Positions 26,013-26,045 of a DNA stretch of 64,000 nt are shown here, piece after piece (positions within the stretch are counted from its first letter, which is position 1; each line of letters opens with the position of its first letter). The stretch is from Escherichia coli (GTDB lineage: Bacteria; Pseudomonadota; Gammaproteobacteria; Enterobacterales; Enterobacteriaceae). The stretch lies in assembly GCF_041886205.1 (NCBI RefSeq), contig NZ_CP169029.1, one strand, 5' to 3'. The position numbers and the translations under genes are program-made. Below the pieces are notes generated by a model. The model did no database searches. It worked only from the letters and a program-made list of their open reading frames with translations, and was not told the DNA's origin.

Positions 26013-26045
26013 CAGTGAGCGCGACTCACAAAATCGCGCTCACTG
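26013..26045. other. Perfect 12-bp inverted repeat (cagtgagcgcga / tcgcgctcactg) with 9-nt loop between the islet and the folA 3' end
   Basis: Read directly; no flanking U-run on either strand, so not a canonical intrinsic terminator. Confidence 0.5.

Follow-up and report, generated by a model that had tools for sequence, protein, structure and literature searches.

Mine, Guglielmini, Wilbaux and Van Melderen reportedly described (Genetics 2009, 181:1557) a spacer between folA and apaH that holds a REP, ccdO157, or a large piece of DNA in which ORFs of unknown function accompany a remnant of ccdA. A further variant of this spacer, with an IS inside the ccdA remnant, is said to figure in that work. 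The ccd operators of plasmid F, the subject of a study by Madl et al. in 2006, are reportedly short GTATAC-type palindromes upstream of ccdA that are bound by the ribbon-helix-helix domain of CcdA. Two papers citing the 2009 work (PMC2654758, PMC3184786) confirm both the plasticity of the folA-apaH locus and the decay of ccdO157, and a full-text literature search on the ccdO157 remnant at folA-apaH found no paper.

Location of the repeat in the folA-apaH islet

The window, i.e., the whole stretch of 64,000 nucleotides analysed here, is part of the E. coli chromosome and carries pdxA, rsmA, apaG and apaH on the plus strand, followed by folA, kefC and kefF on the minus strand. Its segment 24600-26150 is identical (100%) to that of strain wlxctx60. 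The sequences of K-12, O157 and the window diverge no more than a few bases past the folA stop codon (26092-26094), and the ccdA remnant and the hairpin under study both lie within the folA 3' flank (Table 1). The earlier note had placed the repeat at the boundary between the islet and folA. This placement has to be given up, since the point of divergence is the folA stop codon and the repeat begins 47 nt further inside the islet, in the remnant homologous to ccdA. That reading also overlooked the ccdA antitoxin pseudogene around the repeat. The note had proposed a comparison with K-12, reasoning that the same palindrome at the 3' end of folA there would make it an ordinary conserved element. 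The palindrome is absent from K-12, where the 77-bp folA-apaH spacer has a REP, and we therefore conclude that the repeat arrived with the islet. A search of the three islet ORFs with PADLOC and NCBIfam gave no matches, and the hypothetical 149-aa ORF matched nothing in Pfam either.

Table 1. Positions in the window of the inverted repeat and of the features that surround it.
Feature	Position	Strand	Remarks
folA-apaH islet	24667-26091		1425 bp; replaces the 77-bp REP-containing spacer of K-12
DUF4291 gene, 199 aa	24691-25290	+	Pfam E 2e-68; islet, apaH strand
Hypothetical ORF, 149 aa	25326-25775	+	islet, apaH strand
ccdA-family antitoxin remnant (pseudogene)	25892-26082	-	relic ATG 26082-26080; stop 25894-25892
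Near-cognate IS621 target, TTTAGAC-CT-AC+GCA	26001-26014	+	abuts the left arm
Full predicted RNA hairpin, folA-sense transcript	26007-26050	-	-28.6 kcal/mol; starts 42 nt past the folA stop codon
Left arm of the repeat	26013-26024	+	CAGTGAGCGCGA; direct reading of the window sequence
Spacer, 9 nt	26025-26033		CTCACAAAA; between the arms
Right arm of the repeat	26034-26045	+	TCGCGCTCACTG; direct reading of the window sequence
folA (dihydrofolate reductase)	26092-26571	-	stop codon 26092-26094, 9 nt upstream of the relic ccdA ATG

The ccdA antitoxin remnant

The 59-aa ORF at 25892-26071 matches the Pfam family CcdA (PF07362) with an E value of 5.8e-8 and 33.4 bits (cut-off 22.4), the match spanning residues 27-59 and profile positions 39-71. 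RefSeq/PGAP labels the ORF, as 25892-26029 or 25892-26071, "type II toxin-antitoxin system CcdA family antitoxin". Relative to CcdA(O157), three lesions mark the remnant: codon 5 is a TGA (26070-26068), one nucleotide is missing near 26050, and 42 nt (14 codons, in frame) are missing near 25985/25986. In addition, the relic ATG is mutated to AGG in most alleles. Owing to these lesions the N-terminal ribbon-helix-helix domain is not intact in frame, and we therefore file the sequence as a remnant and not as a functional gene; its C-terminal, CcdB-binding part is intact in sequence. Neither ccdB nor the autoregulated ccd promoter/operator is present at the locus: homology to ccdO157 does not extend past the ccdA stop codon, and the folA stop is separated from the ccdA start by 9 nt here versus 85 nt (the promoter/operator spacer) in O157. 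Just past the stop of the remnant, where this homology ends, lies a perfect 12-nt spacerless palindrome, TTCTGTACAGAA (25862-25873), which is changed in some alleles (E. whittamii, loci L020 and L017). The O157 ccd promoter spacer, for its part, contains TGTACA and GTATAC motifs.

The intact ccdAB(O157) operon of O157:H7 occupies the same site, between folA and apaH. The remnant protein is only ~54% identical to CcdA(O157), which argues for a diverged ccdA lineage and not for a recent derivative of ccdO157. With a pN/pS of 0.52, versus 0.03 for the adjacent folA 3' end, the remnant is evolving under relaxed constraint. One strain, LR-29-1, has a premature stop (W to stop) within the remnant ORF. 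We looked for a closer intact relative in three ways. A search of 5.8 billion proteins recovered nothing but the remnant, from E. coli and from E. albertii; a scan of GTDB genomes yielded E. whittamii with the same remnant, and otherwise ccdA genes of the O157 type or more distant ones, all lacking the hairpin; and tblastn against plasmids gave at most 44% identity, chromosomal segments on plasmids aside.

Structure, folding and expected frequency of the repeat

The arms CAGTGAGCGCGA and TCGCGCTCACTG, 12 nt each, are 100% complementary and separated by 9 nt, so that the perfect 12-bp inverted repeat with a 9-nt gap reported earlier is borne out by the arm sequences and their coordinates. The same is true of the nested mini-palindrome, legible directly in the sequence, in which ctcac of the spacer (26025-26029) pairs with gtgag (26015-26019). 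In the minus-strand RNA, three extra pairs (U.G, U-A and U.G) are predicted inside the spacer, leaving a loop of 3 nt. The predicted folding energy is -28.6 kcal/mol for the minus strand and -24.2 kcal/mol for the plus strand, with z ~ -7 for both.

Chance expectation was estimated from dinucleotide-shuffled 64-kb windows, counting perfect inverted repeats with a stem of 12 bp or more and a loop of 3-20 nt. Shuffled windows held 0.1 such repeats on average, with one or more in 6% of the shuffles, and five were counted in the window by the same definition. A perfect 12-bp inverted repeat thus exceeds chance for one window, though several are expected per genome. Other perfect repeats of the window, at 51859-51902, 56842-56871 and 50364-50392, comprise a REP-like pair (CTTATCCGGCCTAC...GTAGGCCGGATAAG) and two hairpins that, with their A/T runs, resemble canonical terminators; by eye, two of the other repeats resemble a REP pair and a U-tailed terminator. 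In addition, an intergenic stretch (34123-34214) contains three overlapping inverted repeats built from one unit of 11-12 nt (TTTCAATATTG / CAATATTGAAA) at a spacing of ~13-20 nt, which by appearance resemble a putative array of dyad binding sites.

With its 12-bp stem and -24 to -29 kcal/mol, the repeat has the G+C-rich stem-loop of an intrinsic terminator. A U-rich tract 3' of the stem is absent from both strands, the stem being followed by GTAAAATC (plus) and CGTAGGTC (minus), and a terminator scan reported no terminator at the repeat. Flanking sequence and scan thus agree with the earlier statements that there is no U-run and that the repeat does not look like an intrinsic terminator, and we reject that reading because the U tract is missing on either strand. 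The repeat was also compared with the K-12 REP at the locus and with the REP sequences given in PMC11208160, and it does not match the REP consensus (GCC[G/T]GATGCG...CTTATC[C/A]GGCCTAC). It is, moreover, found at a single place per genome with both a 136-nt and a 50-nt probe, where a REP would be multicopy. A REP- or MITE-like element is rejected on these two grounds. Among the Rfam covariance models, none gave a hit overlapping 26005-26053, even at E values up to 10.

Distribution and allelic variation

The islet is carried by 536-539 of 5426 complete E. coli genomes (~537) and is also found in E. whittamii and, according to protein records, in E. albertii; ~2,000 genomes have the O157-type locus, without the hairpin. 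We aligned 13 loci, namely the window, nine E. coli genomes drawn from all identity classes, E. whittamii and two metagenome contigs, the latter being the only two contigs returned by a metagenome scan for extra alleles. The repeat is perfect (12/12) in 8 of the 497 genomes matched by the 50-nt probe with identity over 26001-26050, and hence imperfect in ~98% of carriers. At 26015 (minus strand), the window allele alone has a C where all 12 other aligned loci have a T. This T reduces the repeat to 11/12, with a G.U pair in the folA-sense RNA but a mismatch, A.C, on the opposite strand, and the 12 other loci accordingly show 11/12 matches or fewer. As E. whittamii, the metagenome contigs and the other E. 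coli all lack the C at 26015, the perfect repeat is a rare, derived state. The common allele has a predicted folding energy of -26.3 kcal/mol on the minus strand versus -18.0 kcal/mol on the plus strand.

Three further positions vary within the hairpin. A change at 26020 in MRY15-131 (L019) puts a central C.A mismatch into the folA-sense RNA, at a cost of ~5 kcal/mol (-20.9 kcal/mol); a change at 26013 in one of the metagenome contigs (L016) removes the terminal pair; and a change at 26025 in two strains (L022 and P276M, L007) alters the loop from G to A. In P276M, folA and kefC are annotated as frameshifted, which more likely reflects assembly quality than biology. All but one of the 13 loci (four of the five distinct alleles) share an identical 9-bp G+C-rich core. 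The density of variable sites is 4/33 in the repeat versus 24/167 in the rest of the remnant. Across the 13 loci, with five distinct hairpin alleles, natural alleles break two pairs, and in no pair have both partners changed. Arms more conserved than their flanks, or compensated pairs, were thus not seen among these five alleles, a sample that is small and made up of closely related sequences, so that weak purifying selection is possible.

IS621 insertion and plasmid-borne copies

In strain O39:NM F8704-2, the ccdA remnant is interrupted by IS621, a member of the IS110 family with a bridge-RNA recombinase (locus L015, 1440-2730), 5 bp from the base of the hairpin. The insertion point is the CT of TTTAGAC-CT-AC, followed by GCA. 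An IS621 copy in the remnant was seen in one of the 5426 complete genomes and in one draft contig. We take this insertion to be, probably, the variant with an IS in the ccdA remnant of Mine et al. The natural REP target of IS621 is ATCAGGCCTAC, with a GCA flank being favoured (PMC11208160), and the site in the remnant matches it at 8 of 11 positions and has the GCA.

The remnant also occurs on plasmids. A chromosomal kefF-kefC-folA-ccdA-remnant segment is carried by pSW2367-1 (NZ_MG252036.1, 36.0-44.2 kb), an 82-kb multi-replicon (IncF/IncN/IncR) resistance plasmid, where it lies between IS26 and IS1 and adjoins blaTEM-1. The folA of this plasmid encodes a protein with a variant accession, a difference of possible relevance to trimethoprim resistance. 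A match was also obtained to another plasmid, of 69 kb (NZ_CP072804.1).

Origin of the repeat

We consider it likely that the repeat is a neutral quasi-palindrome in a decaying ccdA pseudogene, without a selected or dedicated function. Its location, its homology, the distribution of its alleles and the lack of extra conservation or covariation are matters of observation. By alignment of both DNA and protein, the repeat spans the codons TSERDFVSRAHC, the counterpart of TVDRELVNRARD in CcdA(O157) (the VDRELVNRARD region), at the start of the DNA-binding N-terminal domain. Intact ccdA genes each have just one half of the core: in the O157-type genes and those of E. albertii this is TCGCGCTC (codons N-R-A-R), with GACCGTGA on the opposite side, and a homologue from Enterobacteriaceae, MGYG-HGUT-00110, has GATCGCGA (D-R-D) with CCGAGCAC on the opposite side. 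The O157 segment folds no better than its shuffles (z 0.12). Since the intact genes have one half each, the complementarity of the core seems to be a by-product of codon strings containing Arg. The core (GAGCGCGA ... TCGCGCTC) would derive from Asp/Glu-Arg-Asp/Glu and Asn/Ser-Arg-Ala codons of the CcdA N-terminal ribbon-helix-helix region, in which the strings CGC-GA and TC-GCG are inherently complementary (GA-CGC-GA / TC-GCG-C).

Once the promoter, the reading frame and the ccdB partner had been lost, drift could have extended this complementarity to 11/12, and a single transition at 26015 (A to G, plus strand) would have completed it to 12/12 in the lineage to which the window belongs, a minor one within E. 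coli. This final step is what the "correction" of a quasi-palindrome by template switching would give, and an ordinary transition would account for it just as well. Four substitutions in the ~200-bp remnant are private to the window allele, so that one of them falling within the 24 arm positions is unremarkable. The remnant would be transcribed, if at all, by read-through from folA, given that it lacks its own promoter and begins 9 nt past the folA stop. The read-through RNA would be expected to fold into a hairpin of -21 to -29 kcal/mol, which could slow 3' exonucleases as any stable stem may do, an effect that would be incidental and not selected.

Several observations count against a neutral origin. 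A perfect 12-bp inverted repeat is improbable by chance in 64 kb, the G+C-rich 9-bp core hardly varies (12 of 13 loci identical), and the commonest polymorphism in the arms (C/U opposite G) still allows pairing in the folA-sense RNA. The K-12 REP hairpin, at a similar distance from the folA stop, would fit a convergent use as a 3' stabiliser, and the set of alleles is so small and closely related that weak purifying selection may have operated. If the neutral origin nevertheless holds, the case illustrates that an improbably strong hairpin can arise from coding sequence, here from Arg-rich CGC/GCG codons, and be perfected by drift in a pseudogene. For the annotation, the "boundary palindrome" becomes a piece of a known ccdA remnant and not a new regulatory or mobile element.

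Alternative explanations

Of the alternatives, the one that survives best, and that we nonetheless find unlikely, assigns the hairpin a function in the folA 3' untranslated region, where it would fix the mature 3' end of the folA mRNA and stabilise that mRNA, taking the place of the K-12 REP hairpin. Transcription of folA would enter the untranslated remnant and end downstream, probably through Rho, and 3'-to-5' exonucleases would trim the RNA back to the stem-loop. Trimming of Rho-dependent 3' ends back to stem-loops was reportedly found to be common by Dar and Sorek in 2018. The hairpin does lie 42-47 nt past the folA stop on the folA-sense strand, the strand on which it folds more strongly (-28.6 versus -24.2 kcal/mol; common allele -26.3 versus -18.0 kcal/mol) because G.U pairs form there only. 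In addition, the C/U polymorphism at 26015 and the G-to-A change of the loop in L022 and L007 keep or improve pairing on the minus strand, the terminator scan found no intrinsic terminator downstream of folA within the islet, and K-12 has a REP hairpin in the same folA flank. Against this, the repeat is conserved no better than the pseudogene background and covariation is absent. Natural alleles carry a central mismatch (L019) or lack the terminal pair (L016) in precisely the folA-sense strand, and the ~2,000 genomes with an O157-type locus manage without the hairpin. The downstream flanks of folA in K-12, O157-type and islet-type loci all fold to some degree, so this comparison does not discriminate between locus types.

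The earlier suggestion of an RNA stability element is thus physically plausible as far as the folA read-through RNA is concerned, but finds no support in conservation or covariation. That the hairpin has been co-opted in islet-bearing E. coli as a stabiliser that defines the 3' end of the folA mRNA, functionally replacing the K-12 REP, is somewhat more doubtful still. If it were so, DHFR expression, and possibly susceptibility to trimethoprim, would come under the influence of a piece of a dead antitoxin gene, and a gradation of folA mRNA stability would be expected across the natural alleles (12/12, 11/12 with G.U, central mismatch). As folA is the target of trimethoprim, allelic differences could matter if mRNA stability were affected, and nothing that we found indicates that it is.

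It is very improbable that the dyad is a DNA site for a dimeric regulator, for instance a relic CcdA operator or a site controlling antisense transcription into folA. Its symmetry is perfect in the window, and a weak sigma-70-like match with an extended -10 (CTCACA-16-TGgTAAAAT, 26025-26052, plus strand) overlaps it; a promoter of this kind would point antisense into folA. However, the promoter scan was at chance level (5 found versus 3.7 expected), the dyad is imperfect in ~98% of carriers, and there is one copy per genome with no second site. The repeat lies inside a coding remnant and not upstream of any gene, the ccd promoter/operator spacer of O157 is missing here, and the CcdA encoded at the locus has no intact DNA-binding N-terminal domain. 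The protein-binding dyad offered as an option in the earlier note is thus unsupported, the repeat being unrelated to the missing ccd operator region and conserved at background level. The reading as a CcdA operator is rejected, since the repeat is inside the gene, its sequence is unrelated and the operator spacer is absent.

Viral contigs scanned for the 8+8 core gave 43 matches, mostly in high-GC contigs and all with unrelated loops and flanks, which are due to chance. The least credible explanation, an insertion scar or mobile-element end (a terminal inverted repeat, REP- or MITE-like) left when the islet was acquired, already largely fails: the repeat does lie near one end of a variable islet, and IS621, which normally targets REPs, did insert 5 bp from the hairpin base in one strain, but each of the two arms aligns to coding sequence in intact ccdA homologues, the islet junction is the folA stop codon, 47 nt away, a flanking direct repeat is absent, the repeat is single-copy and unlike the REP consensus sequences quoted in PMC11208160, the 43 viral matches are unrelated, and the IS621 site is accounted for by the 8/11 target match plus GCA, the bridge RNA acting by base-pairing and not by recognition of a hairpin. 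The scar proposed earlier is therefore not supported, as the repeat is internal to ccdA-homologous sequence, single-copy and without a flanking duplication.

Comparison with known systems

The repeat shares with a Rho-independent (intrinsic) terminator a stable G+C-rich stem-loop located 3' of a gene, and differs from it in the lack of a U tract and in its plus-strand loop of 9 nt. Like the REP of the K-12 folA-apaH spacer, it is a G+C-rich hairpin that lacks a U tract and lies in the 3' flank of folA, a few tens of nucleotides past the stop. Unlike that REP, it is unrelated to the REP consensus, single-copy and derived from coding sequence, and it lacks a GTAG/CTAC tail in the REP arrangement. 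The ccd operator dyads likewise show dyad symmetry within a ccd locus, whereas the present repeat is inside the gene and of unrelated sequence, and the O157 operator spacer (GTATAC, TGTACA) is absent from the locus.

The closest counterpart is the locus of Mine et al., where the inverted repeat was apparently not singled out. The site between folA and apaH is reportedly the same, as is the combination of a ccdA remnant with ORFs of unknown function; an IS-interrupted variant is said to exist there too, the IS being IS621 in our case, and that study reportedly reached the conclusion drawn here, of decay under relaxed selection. The feature is an ordinary one, whose placement and significance had been over-read: the repeat is part of an already described ccdA remnant, at a locus of a known type.
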